This document shows positions 4,863 to 25,035 of a stretch of DNA of 64,000 nt, piece after piece. The stretch is from a virus (lineage: Duplodnaviria > Heunggongvirae > Uroviricota > Caudoviricetes), in the IMG/VR virus record IMGVR_UViG_3300033074_000580, positions 95,270 to 159,269 of that record. One strand, given 5' to 3'. The notes beneath the pieces were generated by a model. That model did not search any database and was not told the DNA's origin. It saw only the letters and a program-made list of their open reading frames with translations. Position 1 is the stretch's first letter; each line of letters starts with the position of its first letter. Made by a program: the position numbers and the translations under genes.

Positions 4863-6391
4863 AACATTACTCTTGAACCTATTAAGAAGTTACTTAACAT
4901 CGGAGAACCTGGTGCTGTGTTTAAATTTAATTTGTAATTGAAACTAAACCCAAATCTTTTAGTTATTTTATAATCAAAAGAACTACCCACTAAAAATCCA
5001 AAATGTCTACTTACATTTGTTTCACCAGTTAATGTGTTATATCCGATAGGTGACCACATTGTGAATATTTGAGGTGATATTGTTAACTTTTTACTATATT
5101 GATATGGTTTAGTCCAAAACACAACTGTGGATGTGGATAGACTAGTGGTATATGATTCCTCTCCTTTCATCAATAATGTTATTAAACCCAAGTTATAACC
5201 GTATGTTCCTAATTTTGGATGGGGTTTTATCCAAGTATAACCAACTAAATTCATTAAAGTACCTTTTAAATACGCGGCAGTCATAGAATAACTACTAATT
5301 GAATTTAATCTACCCTTATTATCTAATTTCATTACAGTCATTCCGGATGATAATGCGAATTGGTCAAATGTTGAAAAGGCCATACCATTTAAACTATATG
5401 ATTTATCACCCATTAACGATGATTTAGAAATACCAACTGTCATAGCCAAAGAATAGGTACCGTCAGCTGATTGTGCGGTTGTTAAATCTGATGCAATTAA
5501 CATCGGATTCATATTTTGTTGTTTTTTCTTTTCTTCTTTCTTTTTCTCCTCTTTCTTTTCTTCTTTCTTTTCTTCTTTTTTCTCCTCTTTCTTTTCTTCT
5601 TTTGATTCTTCCTTTTTCTCCTCCTTTTTAGATTCCGATTTTGATTCTTCTTTCTTTTCCTCAGTCTTACTTTCAGATTTTGATTCTGATTTAGATTCAG
5701 ATTTAGATTCAGATTTAGTTTCTGATTTACTTTCAGATGAAGATGATGATGAATTACTCTTACTCTCAGATGATGACGAAGAACTACTATTAGATGAAGA
5801 ACCACCACCACTTGAAGAGGATGATGAACTATTACTTGCAGGTGGTGTTGATGATGCAGATGACGATGTTGGAGGTGGAGTACTTGATGCTGCAGTTGAA
5901 CTTGCAGCACTTGACGCCGAACTACTTGCAGCGCTTGATGCTGAACTACTTGCAGCAGAACTTGCGGCGGTGGATGCCGCCCCACTAGCCGCGGAAGATG
6001 CTGCACTACTTGCGGCAGAAGATGCTGCACTACTTGCCGCATTTGCTGCGGCAGTTGCTGCGGCCGAGGCTGCTTGTGTTGCTGCGGCTGCAACTTGTTG
6101 TGTTATTGTTTGTTGTACCACAACATTTGTTGGACATCCCATACTATTATATGTGATATATGTTTCTTGTAACCAAGCTTGTAATGCCCCACTTTGTACC
6201 TGAGCAGGAGTAAAGGTTTTTATTTGGTTGTAAAAAGAAACTACAGCATTTCCGTTTACATATGTAGTTGTTGCAATTTTAACCTCACCAGTACATTTAT
6301 CAATAAAGGTTTGAGTCATTATAGTTTGACCATACGACTTAAATCCAAAAATCAAAAAAATAATAAAAAACGATAATAATTTTTTCATCAA
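4859..6391 (-). CDS. secreted protein with Ala/Ser and Lys/Glu low-complexity stalk and probable C-terminal beta-barrel
   Basis: Signal peptide; AASS and KKEE tandem repeats; alternating aromatic beta-strands at the C-terminus. Confidence 0.7.
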   Translation of the reverse strand: MMKKLLSFFIIFLIFGFKSYGQTIMTQTFIDKCTGEVKIATTTYVNGNAVVSFYNQIKTFTPAQVQSGALQAWLQETYITYNSMGCPTNVVVQQTITQQVAAAATQAASAAATAAANAASSAASSAASSAASSAASGAASTAASSAASSSASSAASSSASSAASSTAASSTPPPTSSSASSTPPASNSSSSSSSGGGSSSNSSSSSSSESKSNSSSSSSESKSETKSESKSESKSESKSESKTEEKKEESKSESKKEEKKEESKEEKKEEKKEEKKEEKKEEKKKEEKKKQQNMNPMLIASDLTTAQSADGTYSLAMTVGISKSSLMGDKSYSLNGMAFSTFDQFALSSGMTVMKLDNKGRLNSISSYSMTAAYLKGTLMNLVGYTWIKPHPKLGTYGYNLGLITLLMKGEESYTTSLSTSTVVFWTKPYQYSKKLTISPQIFTMWSPIGYNTLTGETNVSRHFGFLVGSSFDYKITKRFGFSFNYKLNLNTAPGSPMLSNFLIGSRVML

Positions 6392-6591
6392 TGTTTATGT
6401 CTCGTAGGTTTATGTCCTCGATAAATGTGTGTTTCTAACAATATACCTCTACCTGGTATCCAAATCGGTGTTGTATATGTGTTATAACGATGTCTTTGAT
6501 AATAGTTATGCTTTCTATCAAAATTTACATATTTGGGTGAAGCACAACCAAATAGAACAAATACAATTGAAATAAATAATAATCTTTTCAT
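6388..6591 (-). CDS. small lipoprotein
   Basis: MKR + hydrophobic stretch + LFGC lipobox. Confidence 0.6.
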   Translation of the reverse strand: MKRLLFISIVFVLFGCASPKYVNFDRKHNYYQRHRYNTYTTPIWIPGRGILLETHIYRGHKPTRHKH

Positions 6592-6602
6592 TTATATAAA
6601 TA

Positions 6603-7292
6603 TTAAATTAGTGATTTAACCATACTATCTGAATGGGATAAAATAAACCTTTTATTATAGAATTTACTATAGTCAGTTCCCTTATCTGAAGGTATTTTTG
6701 TTAAATCTTTATTTGAATAAACTAAAACCCAAGCACTTCTTGGATGTTCGGTGGTATTTTTTTCCGAATAATGCGGGGTATTACCATCCCAAACAATCAT
6801 ATCACCCGCATTTGGTAACGGTCTTACCCATTGATTGTTTTCTTTGTCAAAGATATAAATCGGTCCATTATTTTCATTAAAATCATCTAAAACCCAACAA
6901 CATGTTATGGTTCTAAATTCATTTTTAATTGCCATTGAATTGTTAGGACCCAATTCATTATCGGTATGTTTTTGAAATATAAAATCTTCGTTTGGTAATT
7001 TGGTGGTTATTTGGTCATTAAATAGATAAATTTCATCAGTCTCCAAAAGTTCGGACGCCACATTAAACATAATATCCGATGTATACATATTATATAATTC
7101 ATCGGATAATATACTGGCCATATCGACACCTCTCCAATAAAAGTTTACACCGTAATTTTTTTTAACACCCAATAAGTTTTCATCAATAATTCTTTTTTTT
7201 ATTGATAGTGTTAAATCTTTCGCTCTTTTAAGTGTTTCTTGTGGTATAAAGTTTTCATAAAGGATATAACCTTTCTTATTAAACTTTTCCAT
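6603..7292 (-). CDS. PhyH-like Fe(II)/2-oxoglutarate dioxygenase
   Basis: KGYILYENF, HxD (HTD), ITCCWVLDD..NGP, AGDMIVW, distal His and Arg. Confidence 0.8.
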   Translation of the reverse strand: MEKFNKKGYILYENFIPQETLKRAKDLTLSIKKRIIDENLLGVKKNYGVNFYWRGVDMASILSDELYNMYTSDIMFNVASELLETDEIYLFNDQITTKLPNEDFIFQKHTDNELGPNNSMAIKNEFRTITCCWVLDDFNENNGPIYIFDKENNQWVRPLPNAGDMIVWDGNTPHYSEKNTTEHPRSAWVLVYSNKDLTKIPSDKGTDYSKFYNKRFILSHSDSMVKSLI

Positions 7293-7298
7293 TAAAAT

Positions 7299-8018
7299 TT
7301 ATTTTGTGAAAATTCCCTTTTTAATCATTCTATCCAAAATATTGGCACAAGCAATGTCAAGAGCCTTTTTTGTTGCAATTGATATTGTTGATTGATTAAA
7401 TTTAATTGGGTCAACGGTTGCATCAGATAATAAGGTTAATTCTCTTCTTGTTGTAGCCTCACCTAAACCAGATGCACCAAATAAAACACCCGTTTCCGCG
7501 TCGGTAAATCTAACTTGTAAACCAATACGAGTAACCATATTATCTTTAATACCGTCTTTTAAGTTAATTGTCTCATCTTCCGATATTGAATAATCGTAAC
7601 ATTCAATCGTTACAAAATACTTGGCTAAATTTATTTTACCACGACCGTCTAATTTATTCTCAGAAATCCCCGCTTGAGATGCTTGGAATTGTTTTACCAT
7701 ACGATTCTTAATTTCTGTTTTATCCTCAGTAAATTTGAATCTGTTTAAATTCTCAAGATATTCCATAGATATATTTGCAACCCCTAAACCTACACGTTTT
7801 TCTTTTAATTCAGGGTACATTTCATATACCTCATCAGAAATACCACATTTAAGGATTTGAATAGGAATTTGGGGTCCCTCATAATCCATATATGCTGAAA
7901 TATCTTTTTTCTTTTCAAAATCTGCCTTATATTGTTCAGTTTTAGTTGACCCAATAGTTTGGGCTTCTGAAATGAATCCTATTAAAATTAAGGATAATAC
8001 TAATACTATTTTTTTCAT
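7299..8018 (-). CDS. CsgG/HfaB-like envelope protein
   Basis: Signal peptide; GLGVAN...NRFKFTED...LAKYFV...IGLQVRFTDAETG...A.KKAL layout resembles the CsgG family. Confidence 0.65.
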   Translation of the reverse strand: MKKIVLVLSLILIGFISEAQTIGSTKTEQYKADFEKKKDISAYMDYEGPQIPIQILKCGISDEVYEMYPELKEKRVGLGVANISMEYLENLNRFKFTEDKTEIKNRMVKQFQASQAGISENKLDGRGKINLAKYFVTIECYDYSISEDETINLKDGIKDNMVTRIGLQVRFTDAETGVLFGASGLGEATTRRELTLLSDATVDPIKFNQSTISIATKKALDIACANILDRMIKKGIFTK

Positions 8019-15118: not shown

Positions 15119-15191
15119 GGGCCGGATGTCAATGGCAGACCACCTGATTTGCAATCAGAGTGAAAGGGTTCGATTCCCTACGTGTCCACCA
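15119..15191 (+). tRNA. trnA: tRNA-Ala(UGC)
   Basis: Anticodon loop TTTGCAA, G3.U70, encoded CCA; irregular acceptor stem. Confidence 0.8.
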
Positions 15192-15193
15192 TA

Positions 15194-15268
15194 TTCTTAG
15201 GTAACTCAATGGTGAGAGTACCTCGCTGATACCGAGGAGGTTGGTAGTTCGAATCTACCCCTAAGAAC
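15194..15268 (+). tRNA. trnI: tRNA-Ile(GAU)
   Basis: TTCTTAG/CTAAGAA acceptor; CCTCG-CTGATAC-CGAGG; TTCGAAT. Confidence 0.9.
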
Positions 15269-15272
15269 TGAA

Positions 15273-15345
15273 GGAGATGAAGCTAACTTAGTAGAAGCGA
15301 AGGACTGAAAATCCTTAGGAATTGGAGCGTAACCAATCATCTCCA
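15273..15345 (+). tRNA. trnF: tRNA-Phe(GAA), atypical T-loop AGCGTAA
   Basis: GGAGATG/CATCTCC; AAGGA-CTGAAAA-TCCTT. Confidence 0.85.
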
Positions 15346-15411
15346 CAAAACCAATTTGATAAATGATACGAGCCTCCAAAGTTCGAAATGAGTTATCTTA
15401 TTGGTTTTAAT

Positions 15412-15485
15412 GACCTCGTAGCTCAATTGGTTAGAGCACTACACTTTTAATGTAGGGGTTCTGCGTTCGAGTCGCAGCGGGGTCA
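15412..15485 (+). tRNA. trnK: tRNA-Lys(UUU)
   Basis: GACCTCG/CGGGGTC; CTACA-CTTTTAA-TGTAG. Confidence 0.92.
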
Positions 15486-15491
15486 CAACAC

Positions 15492-15562
15492 ACGGGTGTA
15501 GTTCAATGGTAGAATTATGGTCTCCAAAACCATCGATGGGAGTTCGAATCTCTCCACCCGTG
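15492..15562 (+). tRNA. trnW: tRNA-Trp(CCA)
   Basis: ACGGGTG/CACCCGT; ATGGT-CTCCAAA-ACCAT. Confidence 0.92.
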
Positions 15563-15577
15563 CTAAAATTAAAAACA

Positions 15578-15823
15578 ATGGAACAAGATAACGTTTTAAA
15601 CAGATTGGTACCAAGATTAAAAAAGATAGGAATCAACATAGAAATGTCGGGTAACTATCCTTGGATTTATCTTGATAAGGTGAATGGTAATAGAATTAAA
15701 AAAGAAGATTACTTCTGTGGTAATCACGGATTTACAATTGCATTTTTACCTATAAAACCTAATGTTAAAATGGAATTGACGGACATAAAAGAAGTTTTTA
15801 AAGTGATAAGAAAATACAAATAA
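15578..15823 (+). CDS. hypothetical protein inside the tRNA array
   Basis: Start moved to ATG 15578 (the longer ORF overlaps tRNA-Trp). Confidence 0.65.
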   Translation: MEQDNVLNRLVPRLKKIGINIEMSGNYPWIYLDKVNGNRIKKEDYFCGNHGFTIAFLPIKPNVKMELTDIKEVFKVIRKYK

Positions 15824-15852
15824 TGTTTACTGTTTATAGTAAATAGTAAATA

Positions 15853-15924
15853 GGTCTCTTGGTGTAATGAATAGCACGAAACACTACGGATGTTTTGGTA
15901 AGGGTTCAAATCCTTTAGAGACCT
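15853..15924 (+). tRNA. trnR: tRNA-Arg(ACG)
   Basis: GGTCTCT/AGAGACC; AAACA-CTACGGA-TGTTT. Confidence 0.9.
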
Positions 15925-15984
15925 CAATGTTCACAAATTTTAGATGTTCACGGAACGTGAACAGAAGAAAAAAGTGAACAAACA

Positions 15985-16059
15985 AGTCAGGTTGGCCGAG
16001 TTGGTTTAGGTGATGGTCTGCAAAACCATTTACATTGGTTCGAATCCAATACTTGACTC
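15985..16059 (+). tRNA. trnC: tRNA-Cys(GCA)
   Basis: AGTCAGG/CTTGACT; ATGGT-CTGCAAA-ACCAT. Confidence 0.9.
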
Positions 16060-16063
16060 ATAT

Positions 16064-16135
16064 GGTGTTTGAAGCTTTAAGGTGAAGCACGAGTTTGTGG
16101 AGCTCGGGAAGTCGGTTCGATACCGTCCTAACACC
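16064..16135 (+). tRNA. trnH: tRNA-His(GUG)
   Basis: 8-bp acceptor with G-1; CGAGT-TTGTGGA-GCTCG. Confidence 0.88.
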
Positions 16136-16140
16136 CAAAT

Positions 16141-16209
16141 TGCGGGAAGAAAAGGTTTCCCACCGGTCTCATAAGCCGAGTGTTTCAGGTTCGATTCCTG
16201 ATCCCGCAA
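16141..16209 (+). tRNA. trnM: tRNA-Met(CAU), probably elongator, short D-arm
   Basis: TGCGGGA/TCCCGCA; loop CTCATAA; TTCGATT. Confidence 0.75.
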
Positions 16210-16250
16210 CAAAAAGATTTTGAATATTTTGTAATTTCACAATTTATTCT

Positions 16251-16258
16251 TATCTTTG
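16251..16258 (+). promoter_or_regulatory. internal Bacteroidota-type promoter upstream of tRNA-fMet
   Basis: TATCTTTG. Confidence 0.6.
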
Positions 16259-16268
16259 TAAAACAAAT

Positions 16269-16341
16269 CGCGAGATAGTAGCAGCGGTAGCTCGCAAGGC
16301 TCATAACCTTGAGGTCGGGGGTTCGATTCCCTCTCTCGCAA
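16269..16341 (+). tRNA. trnfM: initiator tRNA-fMet(CAU)
   Basis: C1:A72 mismatch; loop CTCATAA. Confidence 0.88.
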
Positions 16342-16344
16342 CAA

Positions 16345-16608
16345 CAGGTGAAGACTGTGGTGGAACCCCACGGTATATGAATCCTAAACAGCCGTCTTGA
16401 TTCGCGGTATCAGAGCGGTGAAGGTAGAGTCACTATAAGTGGGGAGTAATTAACCCAATTGCGAAAATGTGACCACCAAGTGTAGAGGTACATTTGGTCA
16501 TGATGTTCGAATGGGAACGAAAAACCTGTAACTTATTGAGACTAACTCAACGAGGACTTTGTTAACCATGGCATGACCAGGAGGTGCAATTTAAGGTGAG
16601 TTAGAATC
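16345..16608 (+). ncRNA. unidentified ~260-nt structured RNA
   Basis: CAGGT/ACCTG long-range stem, TGACCA..TGGTCA and CTAACTCA/TGAGTTAG helices; higher GC, no ORF. Confidence 0.55.
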
Positions 16609-16613
16609 AAAAT

Positions 16614-16686
16614 GGGATTGAGGTCAAACGGTTAAGATGTCGCCCTGTCACGGCGCACGGAGCGGGTTCAACTCCCGTCAGTCCCG
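16614..16686 (+). tRNA. trnD: tRNA-Asp(GUC)
   Basis: GGGATTG/CAGTCCC; loop CTGTCAC. Confidence 0.9.
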
Positions 16687-16689
16687 CAA

Positions 16690-16897
16690 TGAGTAAGAGA
16701 TACTCAGGAAGTTTGGTAACGTTCTTTATAAATGTTATAGTTGACGCCTCAAACAACTCAAAGATGAGGTCGTGGGAACGAAGGACATCAACAATCCTCC
16801 CAGTAGTTGTGACTTTTATGTGCGGCTAAGGACCGTCGAGAGTTTTGAAGAGAAAAACCTAAGAAAATCCTACTCACCCGAATCTCAAGGTGGGGCA
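16690..16897 (+). ncRNA. unidentified ~210-nt multi-hairpin RNA
   Basis: TGAGTA-AGAGA-TACTCA, CCTCA/TGAGG, CTCACC/GGTGGG hairpins between tRNAs. Confidence 0.45.
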
Positions 16898-16901
16898 AAT
16901 T

Positions 16902-16988
16902 GGAGAGTTGGTAGAGCGGTTGAATACACCAGTCTTGAAAACTGGCATACTGGAAACGGTATCCGGGGTTCGAATCCCTGACTCTCCG
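16902..16988 (+). tRNA. trnS: tRNA-Ser(UGA)
   Basis: GGAGAGT/ACTCTCC; CCAGT-CTTGAAA-ACTGG; long variable arm. Confidence 0.92.
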
Positions 16989-16993
16989 CATTT

Positions 16994-17065
16994 GCTCGGT
17001 TCGACTAGTGGTTAGGTCGCATCCCTTTCACGGATGTAGCACGGGTTCGAATCCCGTACCGAGTA
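16994..17065 (+). tRNA. trnE: tRNA-Glu(UUC)
   Basis: GCTCGGT/ACCGAGT; CATCC-CTTTCAC-GGATG. Confidence 0.92.
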
Positions 17066-17107
17066 CTTCGTATATTTATATATAGATGGGTTACGACATC
17101 TAAAAAA

Positions 17108-17560
17108 ATGAAGAAAGTTTTCTTATTATTAGTCATTATGTTTTTGGGAGTGGAAACAATGACGTTTGGACAAGATATCAAATCATTATTTGATAAAACA
17201 AAATCACAAGAAGTTCTAATTTTCGGAACTAATAAATCTCAAGACGGTTACATTACGGGTGGTTATATGATTGGTGAATGGGGTCTTTATGCGGGATTTC
17301 CATATTCAGAAAGAAACAACTTATTAAACACATCAAATGGTACTGTTTCAAAGCAAATGAGATTCGGTATTTTAAAACAATTAAAACCTGATAAAATTTT
17401 AATGGGTGCAGGTGCTCAACCAACAAATGAAGGGACGAAATTAAATTGGTTTATTGGTTATAATCCATTACGTAGTAAAGACATGAAACTGTTAATAACA
17501 GGAAATGTAATCGGCTCAGAATTTGTTTTAGGTGCCGGTTTATCTTATAAAGTAAAATAA
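17108..17560 (+). CDS. secreted small beta-barrel-like protein between the tRNA clusters
   Basis: Signal peptide, alternating beta-strands, C-terminal GAGLSYKVK; TATTTATA upstream. Confidence 0.65.
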   Translation: MKKVFLLLVIMFLGVETMTFGQDIKSLFDKTKSQEVLIFGTNKSQDGYITGGYMIGEWGLYAGFPYSERNNLLNTSNGTVSKQMRFGILKQLKPDKILMGAGAQPTNEGTKLNWFIGYNPLRSKDMKLLITGNVIGSEFVLGAGLSYKVK

Positions 17561-17595
17561 TTTTAAAAAATATTTTACATTTTAAAAAATTTTTG

Positions 17596-17603
17596 TATAT
17601 TTG
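17596..17603 (+). promoter_or_regulatory. Bacteroidota-type promoter for tRNA cluster 2 leader
   Basis: TATATTTG. Confidence 0.7.
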
Positions 17604-17620
17604 ATTATACTTATTAAACA

Positions 17621-17731
17621 ATGAAGAACATAAATAATATATTGACCCTTACGAGTAGACCAGTTAATAATGGTAACGGGTATGGTGTGCAACCGTTATA
17701 TTACTTATGTTCGGATATCAATAAAGGATAA
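17621..17731 (+). CDS. 36-aa leader peptide of putative attenuator 2 (MKNINNILTLTSRPVNNGNGYGVQPLYYLCSDINKG)
   Basis: Lies between promoter and terminator; codons 3-29 all read by cluster 2 tRNAs; antiterminator segment 17708-17714. Confidence 0.78.
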   Translation: MKNINNILTLTSRPVNNGNGYGVQPLYYLCSDINKG

Positions 17732-17754
17732 TAAAATTTAAAACTTATATCGAG

Positions 17755-17784
17755 ACCCGAACACAAAAAATGTTCGGGTTTTTT
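17755..17784 (+). terminator. attenuator/terminator hairpin upstream of tRNA cluster 2
   Basis: ACCCGAACA/TGTTCGGGT stem + T run. Confidence 0.82.
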
Positions 17785-17844
17785 GTTTTATGATTTTTTA
17801 TTCTTATATTTGAATTGTAGTTCTTTGACATTGTGAGAAAATTT

Positions 17845-17929
17845 GCCGAGGTGATGGAATGGTAGACATGACAGACTTAAAATCTGTTGGGACGAAAGTC
17901 CCGTGCGGGTTCGACTCCCGCTCTCGGTA
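17845..17929 (+). tRNA. trnL: tRNA-Leu(UAA)
   Basis: ACAGA-CTTAAAA-TCTGT; variable arm. Confidence 0.92.
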
Positions 17930-17964
17930 CAAACACTATCGTTCTTTGATAAAATTAAAAGCGT

Positions 17965-18210
17965 ATGGATATACTATCATTTATTTTAGGAATGTCCGTT
18001 GTGGTGGTTATCGCAGTTGCGGTAGTTGCTGTAATGGCCTTTGTTAAGGTGAAGAAACATAACAAAGAAATTGAAACAATCCACACAATTATGAGTGGAG
18101 AATTTGAACGAGTGAACAGAGATATGACGGATATGCAAAGAGATATTTTCTCTTCGTTAGATTCCCGATTAGATAAACTAGAAAGTAAATTAAGCAGCCG
18201 TAAGGCATAA
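17965..18210 (+). CDS. membrane-anchored coiled-coil protein
   Basis: N-terminal TM, heptad C-terminus. Confidence 0.65.
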   Translation: MDILSFILGMSVVVVIAVAVVAVMAFVKVKKHNKEIETIHTIMSGEFERVNRDMTDMQRDIFSSLDSRLDKLESKLSSRKA

Positions 18211-18249
18211 AGATTAAATAAAAACTTTCAAAGACGATAGTGTTAATTT

Positions 18250-18323
<74 letters not shown>

Positions 18324-18324
18324 C

Positions 18325-18465
18325 AAAGATAATGGTCTGATGTTATTATGGTTGTCGACAAACCTGATAACTACTTCAACAGACAGCACCCTCTGCCGAG
18401 GCCTCAGTAAAACTCTGATGAAGCAGTTAAGATTGGAACGAGACGGGTATTCCATCATTGTCTTT
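18325..18465 (+). ncRNA. unidentified ~140-nt structured RNA
   Basis: AAAGATAATG/CATTGTCTTT closing stem enclosing several hairpins. Confidence 0.5.
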
Positions 18466-18471
18466 ATTTTT

Positions 18472-18547
18472 ATAGATGTAGAGGAGACAGGTTTATCTCG
18501 CCACATTTGGGATGTGGAGCACGTAGGTTCGAATCCTACCATCTATA
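18472..18547 (+). tRNA. trnP: tRNA-Pro(UGG)
   Basis: ATAGATG/CATCTAT; CCACA-TTTGGGA-TGTGG. Confidence 0.9.
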
Positions 18548-18553
18548 CAACAC

Positions 18554-18625
18554 GCTGATGTAGCTCAACGGCAGAGCAATTGACTGTTAATCAATAGGTT
18601 GAGATATCGTAATTCTCCATCAGCG
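18554..18625 (+). tRNA. trnN: tRNA-Asn(GUU), atypical T-arm
   Basis: GCTGATG/CATCAGC; ATTGA-CTGTTAA-TCAAT. Confidence 0.85.
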
Positions 18626-18631
18626 CAACAT

Positions 18632-18712
18632 GGCCGAGTGGTGTAATGGGAGCCACGCTAGTTTTAGGCACTAGTGTCGAAAGACGTGAGAGTTCGAATC
18701 TCTCCTTGGTCA
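18632..18712 (+). tRNA. trnL: tRNA-Leu(UAG)
   Basis: CTAGT-TTTAGGC-ACTAG; variable arm. Confidence 0.88.
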
Positions 18713-18718
18713 CAAAAT

Positions 18719-18802
18719 TGGAGGATGGGTGAGTGGCTAAAACCGGCAGACTGTAAATCTGCTCTCAGAACGGGTACGGGGGTTCGAATCCCTCTCCTCC
18801 AA
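18719..18802 (+). tRNA. trnY: tRNA-Tyr(GUA)
   Basis: TGGAGGA/TCCTCCA; GCAGA-CTGTAAA-TCTGC. Confidence 0.92.
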
Positions 18803-18808
18803 CATTTT

Positions 18809-18882
18809 GGACTTGTAGCTCAGTAGGTTAGAGCAACTGACTCATAATCAGTAGGTCCCTGGTTCGAGCCCAGGCTGGTCCA
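18809..18882 (+). tRNA. trnI: tRNA-Ile2(CAU, lysidine type)
   Basis: ACTGA-CTCATAA-TCAGT; body resembles bacterial Ile2 rather than Met tRNAs. Confidence 0.75.
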
Positions 18883-18961
18883 CGCAATGTGTCATTAGTC
18901 CCTGAAGTAATTCAAACTAATGGTCTCGGTAGACAGAACGCGTCTGATTCTACCCACAATT

Positions 18962-19033
18962 AGTCTCTTAGCTCAGAGGGAGAGCACTTGCCTTACATGC
19001 AAGGGGTCGGGATTTCAAAATTCTCAGGGACTA
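18962..19033 (+). tRNA. trnV: tRNA-Val(UAC)
   Basis: AGTCTCT/AGGGACT; CTTGC-CTTACAT-GCAAG. Confidence 0.88.
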
Positions 19034-19039
19034 CAACAA

Positions 19040-19115
19040 GCGGAAGTAGCTCATTCGGTAGAGCGACGCCTTGCCAAGGCGTAGGTGGCCAGTTCGAGCC
19101 TGGTCTTCCGCTCCA
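19040..19115 (+). tRNA. trnG: tRNA-Gly(GCC)
   Basis: GCGGAAG/CTTCCGC; ACGCC-TTGCCAA-GGCGT; encoded CCA. Confidence 0.93.
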
Positions 19116-19118
19116 TAA

Positions 19119-19190
19119 GCTCGGTTAGTTCAACCGGTAGAACAAATGATTTGTAATCATTAGACAACAGTTCGAATCTGTTACTGAGCT
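19119..19190 (+). tRNA. trnT: tRNA-Thr(UGU)
   Basis: GCTCGGT/ACTGAGC; AATGA-TTTGTAA-TCATT. Confidence 0.9.
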
Positions 19191-19244
19191 CAAAATAAAA
19201 TAAATACTTCCAAGTTTTTAATGTATTTGGAAGTATTTATAGAT

Positions 19245-19676
19245 ATGAAAACAAAAATATGCCCAAAATGTGAAATAGAATTACCATTAGATGATGAACA
19301 TTTCGCATCAAGATATGATAGAAAAGAAAAAATGTTCCAACATATCTGTAGAAAATGTCAAAGTGAGTATAGAAAAATTCACTATGAAAAAAATAAACAA
19401 AAATATATTGATAAGGCTAAGGTTTTTACTCAATCAATTAAAGAATGGTTTATTGAATATAAAAAAACATTAAAATGTAAAGAATGTGGTGAGGATAGGT
19501 ATTGGGTGTTAGATTTCCATCACAGGGACCCAAAAGAAAAAGATATTGATGTTTCTACTTTAATTAGAAAAGGAAACAAAAATAAAATATTAAAAGAAGT
19601 TGAAAAATGTGATGTTCTATGTTCTAATTGTCATAGAGATTTACATTTTAAACAAAATAATGCGGATTTCGCCTAG
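19245..19676 (+). CDS. HNH homing endonuclease
   Basis: N-terminal CxxC pairs; LDFHHRDP..CDVLCSNCHR; start moved to ATG 19245. Confidence 0.85.
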   Translation: MKTKICPKCEIELPLDDEHFASRYDRKEKMFQHICRKCQSEYRKIHYEKNKQKYIDKAKVFTQSIKEWFIEYKKTLKCKECGEDRYWVLDFHHRDPKEKDIDVSTLIRKGNKNKILKEVEKCDVLCSNCHRDLHFKQNNADFA

Positions 19677-19735
19677 TTGGTATGGCATCACACTTCCAAT
19701 GTGAAATAGGGTCGGTTCGAGCCCGATAATCCGCT
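19662..19735 (+). tRNA. trnG: tRNA-Gly(UCC)
   Basis: GCGGATT/AATCCGC; TCACA-CTTCCAA-TGTGA. Confidence 0.9.
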
Positions 19736-19741
19736 CATAAC

Positions 19742-19816
19742 TGTCCTCTCGTATATCGGTTATTACATCTGGTTTTGGTCCAGATAAGTGGGGTTCGATT
19801 CCCTGGGGGACATCCA
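19742..19816 (+). tRNA. trnQ: tRNA-Gln(UUG)
   Basis: TGTCCTC/GGGGACA; TCTGG-TTTTGGT-CCAGA; encoded CCA. Confidence 0.9.
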
Positions 19817-19828
19817 AAATTTTAAACT

Positions 19829-20059
19829 ATGAGTATTTTTGCAATTTATTACGTAATATGTATTGCGTATTGTTTTTATCAATTAAATAAGAAATATAAA
19901 AACAGAGGTATCGATTACGGAACATCACCTGAATTAGATTCCATTATGGTTTTAGTAATGGCTTGGATTTTAGCACCAATTGATGTTTCTATAACTTGGA
20001 TACGAATGGTAAAAGAAGCTGAAGAAGCTAAAAGAAGACAAGATAAACAAGTACTTTAA
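19829..20059 (+). CDS. small two-TM membrane protein
   Basis: Two hydrophobic segments. Confidence 0.6.
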   Translation: MSIFAIYYVICIAYCFYQLNKKYKNRGIDYGTSPELDSIMVLVMAWILAPIDVSITWIRMVKEAEEAKRRQDKQVL

Positions 20060-20060
20060 C

Positions 20061-20146
20061 GGAGAGTTACCCAAGTTGGTGAAGGGGGCAGTTTGCTAAA
20101 CTGTTAGGTCGTTCGCGGCGCAAGGGTTCGAGTCCCTTACTCTCCG
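20061..20146 (+). tRNA. trnS: tRNA-Ser(GCU)
   Basis: GGAGAGT/ACTCTCC; loop TTGCTAA; variable arm. Confidence 0.92.
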
Positions 20147-20151
20147 CACAT

Positions 20152-20300
20152 TGTAGTGTGACGAAACTTTGGCAGACGTGCCCTCCTGTCTCGGGGGTGT
20201 GGACAAAGAAATAGACAAGTGATATGGGGTAGACCACCTTCCGGCCGGATGTGTTACTTGTTGAATCTCCACTTGAGTGGTTCGAATCCCTCCACTACAG
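20152..20300 (+). ncRNA. 149-nt tRNA-like RNA with giant branched variable arm
   Basis: TGTAGTG/CACTACA acceptor, Leu-like D-loop, CCCTC-CTGTCTC-GGGGG, TTCGAAT T-loop, ~75-nt insert. Confidence 0.75.
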
Positions 20301-21894: not shown

Positions 21895-22700
21895 TATTGG
21901 CCGCCTATGGTCATTAAATAAACTGTGAAAGCAGTATAAAGTGAGTCTGAATTAGTTATTTGGATTTGCGGTTTTCGAAAGAGAACTCGAGTAGGCAAGC
22001 GGGATATCATTGAACCGTAAGTACTGAGGGTAACACTGTAGGGAAAGTGGTTTGGTGACTGAGCGATACCGGTCGTTCAGTTGAGGTGGGAACACTAATA
22101 AGAATAACTCGTAGAATTGTTGTGAGAAGTATGGTCATCCAACTATACAATTGCGGAATTCAATACAATGGGAATCTTAAAACCGAAAGGTATGATTGAG
22201 TACAGGTGGTGCTGTTACAGTCCTTGATTTGAATCTACCAAGGTTCATGTCTCGAAGGGGTCCAAAAGTGTGGAGGTCGGGAGACTTCAGAGGGTAGTTT
22301 AGTATTTCGTCGCTCAAAAGGTGATGAAGCTGGTTGACGGACCGCTACCTTCCAAATCGGTAACTAAAATCATTTTGTTAATTTTGGTTTAACAACTTAA
22401 AAGCAAAAGGAAAAGTGTCCGTCAGTCATTGGAGACAGGTGACTACATAGTCGTGAGGGGTTCACGGCCACAAAGGGTCCCAAACCCGATGTGAATTATG
22501 AGAAAGTTCTCTAGTCCCGCAAGGATGAGTTGGGGTGGCAACCTCGAAGAGTAATGAGTATTATGAGAGTATCTAATGACTCAAGGATTGGTTAATCTAA
22601 TTGACCGTCACTGGTTGGTACAGTTCAAAAGACTGTGGATATGAAAGGAAACAATAATCTTTCTAAAGTCAACTACTAAAACTTGTAATCTCAGAGTTTT
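21895..22700 (+). ncRNA. ~800-nt large structured RNA, GOLLD-like
   Basis: ORF-free, raised GC, many GNRA hairpins, repeated YCAAAAG loops; size and tRNA-proximal phage context fit GOLLD; family not verified. Confidence 0.65.
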
Positions 22701-24633: not shown

Positions 24634-25035
24634 GGGGATGTTTGGATTTGATTTCAGGTATCAGGGATAAATGGCACGTAGTCAGACTTCATCTATGACT
24701 TAAATCCACGGTGGAAAAAATTAGACGGCAACGTTTACAACAACATGGAAGTAGCAGGTATTCTTGCAACTTCTAACGTAGCAGTAGCCTAAGGCGAAAC
24801 TACCCTCGGGTCGACGTACATATAACCTAGGAACAGAAGTACTTAAAGTGTGATACCACTTAGAGTGTCAAAGGTCTCGTTCAGAGGGCTACCTTAAAGT
24901 GAACTCGACACAGTTATAGGGAACGATGTCAAAATAGGAACCTTTTATTTGTCAGTTGAGAACCAATTGAATAAACGTGTAGTCATTTATTGTTGAACAG
25001 GAAAGACACGGGTTCGACTCCCGTCATCTCCACCA
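24634..25035 (+). ncRNA. ssrA: tmRNA
   Basis: 5' GGGGATG / 3' CATCTCC-ACCA with G3.U; T-arm GGTTCGACTCC; tag ORF 24727-24792; TATATTTG promoter at 24615; terminator 25036-25060. Confidence 0.92.

Follow-up and report, generated by a model that had tools for sequence, protein, structure and literature searches.

An uncatalogued tRNA-shaped RNA with a branched variable arm in a giant lake phage and in Bacteroidota: a candidate off-ribosome amino-acid carrier

Introduction

Staphylococci have a non-proteinogenic tRNA-Gly that feeds cell-wall synthesis, and the Fem enzymes that consume it are known. In bacteria the AspRS identity set comprises G73, G34, U35, C36, C38 and G10. The tRNA-Asn that serves ND-AspRS and GatCAB as cofactor in tRNA-dependent asparagine synthesis (PMC1635274; PMC4206432) is among the described systems closest to the RNA reported here. 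A U1-A72 pair promotes amidation by GatCAB and a G1-C72 pair prevents it, while an extra D-loop base, U20A, blocks the enzyme on tRNA-Asp (Bailly et al. 2006, PMC1635274). Bacteria that combine AsnRS, GlnRS and GatCAB, Bacteroidetes among them, are a known puzzle, and their retention of GatCAB is usually explained by asparagine synthesis on ordinary tRNA-Asn (Alperstein 2014, PMC4206432).

Two other lines of work bear on the unusual size and shape of the element. The oversized tRNA genes of Lak megaphages were interpreted as intron-bearing (Devoto 2019, PMC6784885), and Kretsch et al. (bioRxiv 10.1101/2024.12.08.627333) argued from a switching between palindromic tetramers that OLE and GOLLD have symmetric intermolecular loops. 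Here we describe a tRNA-shaped RNA with a long branched arm, found beside the tRNA cluster of a phage, and we compare its anatomy, relatives and genomic associations with these systems.

Genomic setting

The window, that is, the whole stretch of DNA that was analysed (64,000 nt), covers bases 95270-159269 of a 324-kb IMG/VR phage record that is ~97% complete and whose source is described as a giant lake phage. The RNA genes of the window that concern us are the following:

15119-20147: large tRNA cluster, 23 tRNAs called by ARAGORN and 3 more by Rfam
15119-15188: tRNA Ala-UGC, added by Rfam, no ARAGORN call
16141-16209: third CAU tRNA, added by Rfam, no ARAGORN call
16614-16686: normal tRNA-Asp(GTC), anticodon GUC, Rfam 50.1 bits, missed by ARAGORN
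20152-20300, + strand: tRNA-shaped element, 149 nt, four bases after tRNA-Ser(GCU)
22290-22697: GOLLD RNA, 322 bits, 2 kb downstream of the element
24634-25035: tmRNA, from the Rfam search of the window

The phage's own tRNA-Asp begins with a G1:C72 pair, and its tRNA-Asn does likewise. We found no Ro60/TROVE, class IIb synthetase, TGT, GatB or asparagine synthetase in the phage genome.

Homologues and covariation

ARAGORN made no call over 20152-20300, and Rfam 15 (4227 families, including RF00005) gave no match at E<=1 over the same bases. A blastn search against 50,697 phage records matched only the adjacent tRNA-Ser and returned no relative of the element. Its single-sequence fold was no better than that of shuffles (z = -0.70); since the fold of a lone sequence proves nothing, support for the structure was sought in the comparison of homologues. 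The downstream RNase H-like protein (PF04308) was used to fetch 67 related phage loci, 30 of which contained the element with 68-93% identity. We also ran two DNA-pattern scans of IMG/VR, the first too loose and yielding mostly chance matches, the second tighter and successful. The PF04308 loci and the scans together gave at least 155 full-length phage copies, at least 119 of them distinct, and this family size is a lower bound.

In an alignment of 24 sequences, a hand-drawn structure paired in 97.7% of the cells and 27 of its 42 pairs showed compensatory changes. With 100 distinct homologues aligned to our model R1, pairing rose to 99.2% of the cells and compensatory changes to 31 of the 42 pairs; 0 out of 500 shuffles approached this level, and registers slid by 1-3 columns lowered pairing to 40-54%. 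Compensatory changes were present in every helix (acceptor, D, anticodon and T stems, P1, the three pairs above it, and P2), in P2a at the basal pair only. True members scored at least 116 bits with R1 and ordinary tRNAs at most 38, the best non-member matches being tRNA-Leu genes (35.9 bits). Because of the compensatory changes and this separation of scores, the element is a real structured RNA gene and not a decayed one. A full-text literature search found no description of this RNA, and the family, which has no Rfam entry, is uncatalogued, large and deeply conserved.

The neighbours of the phage copies were without exception on the same strand, and no universal neighbour gene that might encode a partner protein was found across the 119 phage loci. 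The PF04308 RNase H-like gene adjoined the element in 32 of these loci and a 76-aa ORF in 40, while ~40% of the phage copies sat directly after a tRNA, mostly tRNA-Ser. Defence or nuclease genes were not consistently adjacent to the element in the loci neighbourhoods examined.

A conserved tRNA body

The tRNA body of the window's copy is made up of the following parts (counts out of 100 refer to phage homologues):

20152-20158, + strand: acceptor 5' strand UGUAGUG (DNA TGTAGTG); 7/7 pairs in all members, pairs 4-7 covary, U1:A72 in 100/100
20159-20180, + strand: U8, G9, 3-bp D stem ACG/CGU, Leu-type D loop, G18 G19 and position 26; 10:25 and 11:24 covary
20181-20197, + strand: anticodon arm CCCTC/CTGTCTC/GGGGG with loop CUGUCUC; all 5 pairs covary
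20275-20292, + strand: T arm GAG(U)GG/UUCGAAU/CCCUC; 4/5 T-stem pairs covary, T loop UUCGA invariant
20293-20300, + strand: acceptor 3' strand CACUACA (DNA CACTACA, stem 20293-20299) and discriminator G73 (G at 20300); G73 in 100/100

Within the perfect 7-bp acceptor, U1, G2 and U3 are near-invariant, and the pairs G2:C71 and U3:A70 are near-invariant or invariant. The D loop of this copy, AAACTTTGGCAGA / AAACUUUGGCAGA, closes on the ACG/CGT stem and is Leu-like, with CAG as the three bases between G19 and A21. The D stem covaries as GC/AU/UA at 10:25 and as UA/CG at 11:24; U8, G9 and G18 G19 are invariant or nearly so among the 100 phage homologues, and G10 is found in only 55% of them. An extra D-loop hairpin, absent from the window's copy, occurs in 77% of the phage homologues, and the short hairpins of this kind are palindromes, e.g. 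GCGUACGC, GGAUAUAUCC and AUAGCCUAGGCUAU. The T loop (TTCGAAT) is canonical, and the T stem of this copy has a bulged U at 20278, where 28% of the homologues have a bulged base.

The anticodon GUC lies at 20188-20190 and is followed by U37 at 20191. All 100 phage homologues keep G34 U35 C36 and 96 keep C38. At position 33, 62 of them have U, 35 have C and 3 have A; position 37 never holds a purine, being U in 96 and C in 4. Since position 33 varies, position 37 is a pyrimidine and a normal tRNA-Asp lies in the same cluster, the element is very probably a tRNA-shaped RNA that does not decode, and we hold with high confidence that it represents a real family of non-decoding tRNA-like RNAs. These results agree closely with the original prediction, which had described the perfect acceptor, the Leu-type D loop, the GUC arm with a pyrimidine at 37, the canonical T loop and the separate tRNA-Asp, and had concluded that a decoding tRNA was not involved. 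It had also read the element as a functional RNA on a tRNA scaffold and proposed homologue search and covariation as the check; the comparison bears this out, as a full cloverleaf compatible with an L shape is preserved through compensatory mutation.

The flanks of the gene are also conserved, with Y at -1 in 117 and C at +74 in 118 of the 119 phage copies; in the window, the base after G73 (20301) is C, which the ordinary tRNA genes of the phage also have there. The set -4 A, -2 A, -1 Y and +74 C is the prevailing one at 546 canonical tRNA genes from these phages too, and it is kept more strictly at the element than at those genes. Because the flanks match those of canonical tRNA genes, RNase P and the 3' processing enzymes would most likely cut the element out, and a CCA end would be added as in the neighbouring tRNAs.

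The branched variable arm

The variable region of the window's copy is branched, 75 nt long, and composed of these parts:

20199-20213, + strand: 5' side of the arm base, with P1 GUGG, an A-rich bulge, 3 pairs and the loop strand AAUA; from covariation
20214-20224, + strand: P2 5' strand GACAAGUGAUA; 8/11 P2 pairs changed on both sides
20226-20238, + strand: P2a hairpin GGGG-UAGA-CC(A)CC; basal pair covaries GC/UA, remainder invariant
20240-20249, + strand: P3, perfect palindrome UCCGGCCGGA, candidate symmetric dimerisation site
20252-20272, + strand: P2 3' strand (invariant UGU, UACUUGUU), GAA, 3 pairs and P1 CCAC; from alignment and covariation

A base stem, a helix GACAAGT/ACTTGTT and two terminal hairpins had been predicted for this region, and all of them are present. 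The base stem had been drawn with 5 bp (GTGGA/TCCAC); by covariation, however, P1 has 4 bp (GTGG/CCAC), and P2 reaches 11 pairs, the last three of which are invariant. Three pairs, preceded by an A-rich bulge and followed by a conserved internal loop in which AAUA faces GAA, lie between P1 and P2. Covariation is strong at P1 pairs 2 and 3 and at pair 78:154 of alignment A1. Judged by eye, the strands of the internal loop misfit the K-turn consensus; a loop-E was also considered. Beyond P2 the arm forks into P2a and P3.

The P2a hairpin (consensus GGGG-UWGA-CC(A)CC) belongs to the near-invariant motif GGGGUWGACCAC, and its conservation far exceeds what a hairpin needs. A kissing contact between the anticodon loop and P2a (GUCU with AGAC) is an idea only, as both are invariant and show no covariation. 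The sole correlation seen links position 33 to the P2a loop; it tracks clades and does not obey Watson-Crick pairing.

In 100/100 phage sequences P3 forms a perfect palindrome of 6-12 nt; 98 of them reach 8 nt or more, as do 4% of shuffled controls. We counted 22 versions of the palindrome, with the centres UGCA (49), GGCC (26), CCGG (18), AGCU (4) and UCGA (3), all self-complementary. Since an ordinary hairpin needs no self-complementary loop and OLE and GOLLD show the same switching, two copies of the phage RNA very probably pair through their P3 tips as a putative homodimer. The palindromic D-loop hairpin may add a second self-pairing site in many relatives.

Bacteroidota relatives and the AsnC-like regulator

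A pattern scan of one genome per species identified six copies of the phage type in Bacteroidota MAGs (Algoriphagus, Flectobacillus, Cytophagales and Bacteroidia), all on short contigs. With R1 we found chromosomal copies in 14 out of 150 genomes sampled across Bacteroidota and in 28 out of 151 sampled from one class, on contigs of up to 5 Mb and with scores of 63-124 bits. The 45 bacterial members are 106-212 nt long, with arms of 35-139 nt. All 45 have U1:A72 and G73, and the anticodon is GUC in 43; a tandem pair in a single genome carries the Glu anticodon UUC. The bacterial members have U, C or G at position 33 and U, G or C at position 37, with G37 in five. Regarding the arm, only its base is common to bacterial and phage members: the GGGUUGACCAC (GGGGUWGACCAC) motif was found in 19/45 bacterial members, and P2a and P3 are missing from over half of them and from one phage member (L016).

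A divergent AsnC-like gene lies ~130-300 nt upstream of the RNA in 28 of the 38 carrier genomes. Its product has the Lrp/AsnC fold (PF01037, PF13404), and its best NCBIfam model is AsnC (NF008384) with 161-170 bits, under the equivalog cut-off of 227 bits; other Lrp-type models gave at most 88 bits. The genes beyond the regulator and the RNA vary among genomes, so the conserved unit is this pair. The classical target of AsnC is AsnA, which was absent in 34/34 genomes tested. The element is best explained as a phage-borne copy of a tRNA-shaped RNA from an uncatalogued Bacteroidota family.

Association with GatB

GatB was present in 38/38 carrier genomes versus 28/39 non-carriers. The informative subset is that of GlnRS-positive genomes, because GatCAB is not needed there for Gln-tRNA: within it, GatB was found in all 20 carriers versus 3 of the 12 non-carriers and was absent in the other 9 (hypergeometric p ~8e-6, phylogeny ignored). 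On a GlnRS tree, carrier and GatB states interleave and well-supported branches force at least four joint changes, namely G278 vs G015/G025, G225 vs G163, G282 vs G090/G174/G161 and, more weakly, G082 vs G157 (SH-aLRT 93, below the star threshold). This phylogenetic control is one GlnRS gene tree made by a quick method, with genomes that carry no taxonomy. The negatives hold with laxer filters.

We found AsnRS in all 20 GlnRS-positive carriers and in GlnRS-positive genomes wherever it was checked. All carriers tested had AsnRS, and 12 out of 14 had an AsnB-type enzyme above the model cut-off. The RNA as a replacement route to Asn was rejected, the distribution of AsnRS, AsnB and AsnA showing no simple complement pattern. 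Read together with its neighbourhood, the pattern of occurrence says that the RNA is probably regulated by an AsnC-like protein and apparently lost together with GatCAB.

Discussion

A possible function follows from the anatomy of the element. The AspRS identity bases G73, G34, U35 and C36 are present in 100/100 phage copies and C38 in 96, G10 not being kept, and the GatCAB determinant U1-A72 is present in 100/100 phage and 45/45 bacterial copies. Because the identity bases and U1:A72 are kept and U33 and a purine at 37 are not, AspRS should load the RNA, GatCAB should accept it and the ribosome should reject it. Host AspRS would load aspartate onto the RNA, and GatCAB would turn the RNA-bound aspartate into asparagine away from the ribosome, with the charged RNA held out of translation by its odd anticodon loop and huge arm. 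In bacteria, the neighbouring AsnC-like regulator would control the RNA gene. The phage, with no GatB, class IIb synthetase or asparagine synthetase of its own, would plug its RNA copy into the host enzymes and perhaps raise the asparagine supply during infection; the palindromic tips suggest a phage form that works as a pair, which would suit the dimeric AspRS. An off-ribosome amidation carrier is the simplest model because it joins the anatomy, the AsnC-like regulation and the joint loss with GatCAB. We regard the full mechanism, with charging by AspRS, amidation by GatCAB and borrowing by the phage, as plausible, if slightly short of probable.

Several points weigh against this carrier model. 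The Leu-type D loop, in which three bases separate G19 from A21, may act as a GatCAB antideterminant. AspRS approaches the tRNA from the side of the variable loop in the yeast AspRS-tRNA complex, and the 75-nt arm might clash with it. An AsnB-type enzyme is present in 12/14 carriers, so that a tRNA-dependent route is not obviously needed, and asparagine on an RNA with an Asp anticodon would require a step of release or hand-over. Finally, three GlnRS-positive genomes retain GatB without the RNA, and the AsnC match lies under its cut-off.

Among the alternatives, a self-associating structural or scaffold RNA would use the tRNA body for processing and stability and would contact RNA or protein partners through the GUC loop and the GGGGUWGACCAC motif, with no aminoacylation. 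The P3 palindrome of 100/100 phage sequences, the palindromic D-loop hairpins of many relatives, the conservation of P2a far past the needs of a hairpin, the complementarity between anticodon-loop GUCU and P2a-loop AGAC, and the location of GOLLD, a known cage-forming RNA, 2 kb downstream would all suit such a role. We nevertheless consider it unlikely, as most of the bacterial members, and L016 among the phage ones, lack P2a and P3, whereas U1:A72, G73 and GUC are kept everywhere, which makes the tRNA identity set and not the tip the shared core; moreover, the anticodon loop and P2a do not covary, and the links to GatB and AsnC would be left unexplained. Phage tRNAs are known to counter tRNA-cutting defences, and a decoy or inhibitor of a host factor that handles tRNA-Asp (a defence anticodon nuclease or AspRS) would fit both the place in a phage tRNA cluster and an anticodon loop of tRNA-Asp that is kept although decoding is lost. 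This is quite improbable, given a family that is chromosomal in 14/150 and 28/151 Bacteroidota genomes under an AsnC-like regulator, a co-inheritance with GatB that is not expected of phage counter-defence, and the lack of consistently adjacent defence or nuclease genes. The roles suggested in the original prediction (decoy, aptamer carrier, inhibitor of a synthetase or nuclease) are without support; the adjacent AsnC-like regulator and the co-inheritance with GatB suggest that the phage has borrowed a host function concerned with amino acids or aminoacyl-tRNA, rather than one of anti-defence.

The element might also be a working tRNA-Asp that reads GAC/GAU despite its arm, for instance one that resists host tRNA cleavage; all AspRS marks, the canonical T loop, G18 G19, the tRNA-like flanks and the G37 of five bacterial members are in keeping with it. 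This is very unlikely in view of the pyrimidine at position 37 in 100/100 phage copies, the C or A at position 33 in 38% of them and the G there in some bacterial members, the bulged T-stem base in 28%, the canonical tRNA-Asp of the same cluster and the G1:C72 pair, not U1:A72, of that phage tRNA-Asp. Removal of the 75 nt as an intron to give a short tRNA, or a decayed one-off gene, both named in the original prediction as outcomes that would refute it, are exceedingly improbable. The oversized Lak megaphage genes read as intron-bearing offer a precedent for splicing. The sequencing runs X17-X19 are probably of DNA, and two such runs gave a joint of 20202 to 20279; this joint has 27-nt sides and an unknown middle and reflects divergent relatives. 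The sole true metatranscriptome (X16) had no contig on 20044-20391, and no credible spliced contig was found among the contigs of sequencing runs mapped to the window. Every one of the at least 119 distinct phage copies, like the bacterial ones, has an arm (35-139 nt), compensatory changes run along the whole of it, and the D arm has the class II form that accompanies a true long arm. The arm is located in the variable region, where we know of no bacterial splicing system that acts, and Rfam shows neither intron nor ribozyme. With at least 119 distinct copies of conserved structure the decay reading is effectively refuted, and it is possible that the Lak-phage 'tRNA introns' are a mis-reading of similar arms.

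Extending the carrier model, we put forward as a tentative possibility a 'metabolic tRNA': an asparagine carrier of AspRS and GatCAB, excluded from translation and switched on by an AsnC-type regulator in Bacteroidota, which would explain why an otherwise redundant GatCAB is kept there and which giant phages would have captured, their self-pairing tips perhaps assembling two carriers on dimeric AspRS/GatCAB. If true, a tRNA-shaped RNA would have a new job, that of an amino-acid conversion carrier kept off the ribosome, and there would be a testable answer to why bacteria with AsnRS and GlnRS retain GatCAB. The phage copy would then be a rare auxiliary metabolic gene that is an RNA. Should the asparagine link fail, there would still stand an uncatalogued family that occurs in Bacteroidota, is clear in its anatomy, probably has a homodimer interface and lies beside a conserved regulator, and it is open to experiment in cultivable bacteria of the Cytophagia type.

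Comparison with known systems

The nearest canonical relative of the element's body is tRNA-Leu. As in bacterial class II tRNAs, and tRNA-Leu in particular (RF00005), the element has a 7-bp acceptor, a 3-bp D stem, a D loop AAxUUGGYAGAC, 5-bp anticodon and T stems and a T loop UUCGA, and its variable arm begins at the usual place. The arm itself is 75 nt long and branched, in contrast to 13-21 nt in class II tRNAs. It further differs from tRNA-Leu in having G73 instead of A73, the anticodon GUC, a U33 that is not kept and a pyrimidine at 37, and neither RF00005 nor ARAGORN calls it. The staphylococcal tRNA-Gly resembles it as an extra aminoacyl carrier that keeps its synthetase identity and has changes that avoid EF-Tu and the ribosome; unlike the element, those tRNAs are of normal size and have a usable anticodon loop. 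We also looked for a YrlA-like Y RNA and rejected it, with no YrlA match on the element and no TROVE domain in the phage genome.

The species 1 and 2 RNAs of T4 (rnaC, 139 nt, and rnaD, 119 nt; NC_000866 70908-71171) are stable RNAs, likewise unexplained, whose 3' part resembles a tRNA and which end a phage tRNA cluster. With R1, rnaC scored 14.1 bits and rnaD 0 bits (E 5.2), and neither a GUC loop nor a comparable arm is found there; we therefore rejected their membership in the family (R1 14 bits or less) and regard them as positional analogues only.

With the tRNA-Asn cofactor of ND-AspRS and GatCAB (PMC1635274; PMC4206432) the element shares U1:A72 and G73, its restriction to GatB-bearing genomes among those examined, and its presence in Bacteroidota that have AsnRS, GlnRS and GatCAB. 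It differs in its anticodon, GUC and not GUU, so that even a discriminating AspRS should accept it, and it cannot deliver Asn to Asn codons; it also has the giant arm and the Leu-type D loop. Compared with the homomeric RNA-only assemblies of OLE, ROOL and GOLLD (bioRxiv 10.1101/2024.12.08.627333), the element is much smaller and has a tRNA body. It shares with them a hairpin centre that switches among palindromic tetramers, as well as a phage-borne setting that adjoins tRNA islands, and a GOLLD gene lies in its own neighbourhood in this phage.

Members with another anticodon and divergent relatives

Two short bacterial members of the element family were found in tandem in one locus (L316) of the bacterial genome G138:

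L316:1279-1388, short bacterial member
L316:1501-1609, short bacterial member

The anticodon loop of both genes was CUUUCUC, which gives a UUC (Glu) anticodon followed by U37, and both retained U1:A72 and G73. Glu, found in this pair, was the sole alternative anticodon observed in the family; besides Asp, GatCAB amidates Glu.

Among the phages, the family included a divergent member (116 bits with model R1). Its tRNA body was intact, with UUGUCUA as the loop, and helices P1/P2 of the variable arm were retained, whereas a short AU-rich loop took the place of the P2a and P3 fork:

L016:3828-3966, divergent phage member

Several further oversized tRNA-like genes (101-141 nt) were also present in related phages:

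L034:1215-1355
L028:5-138
L005:216-354
L052:2073-2184
L013:3374-3474
L006:2498-2603

Their acceptor, D and T arms were normal, while they carried foreign inserts and differing discriminators; these genes are families separate from that of the element.

Neighbours of the bacterial copies

A TrmB-type methyltransferase gene (PF02390) was located downstream of the RNA gene in two genomes, immediately after it in L323 and ~2.7 kb off in L325. Two genes related to tRNA charging were found near the RNA gene, each in a different bacterium, the first at ~250 nt on the same strand and the second at ~6 kb:

L322 (G074:C6) 6364-7926, minus strand, lysine-tRNA ligase gene
G010:C2:1316125-1317510, asnS

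tRNA genes and other RNAs of the window

The following tRNA genes of the window matched Rfam RF00005 and had no ARAGORN call:

15119-15188, tRNA Ala-UGC (29.7 bits)
16141-16209, third CAU tRNA (33.3 bits)
16614-16686, tRNA Asp-GUC (50.1 bits)

Between a CAU tRNA (16269-16342) and this tRNA-Asp, a stretch of ~260 nt (16345-16608) had few ORFs, higher GC and no Rfam match at E<=1. A further structured RNA, cut from the tRNA transcript, may lie here. Downstream of the element, we identified two other RNAs:

22290-22697, GOLLD RNA, 2 kb 3' of the element (full-length RF02032 match, 322 bits, model 1-416)
24634-25035, tmRNA, next after the GOLLD RNA

In 89% of 546 canonical tRNA genes of the phage group (loci L002-L277), position 74 was an encoded C that led into A-rich sequence without completing the CCA; position -1 was U in 67%. 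The phage's own tRNA-Asn (window 18554-18626) has G1:C72 as its first pair and is therefore a predicted non-substrate of GatCAB, according to the published rule that U1-A72 promotes amidation and G1-C72 prevents it (Bailly 2006, PMC1635274).
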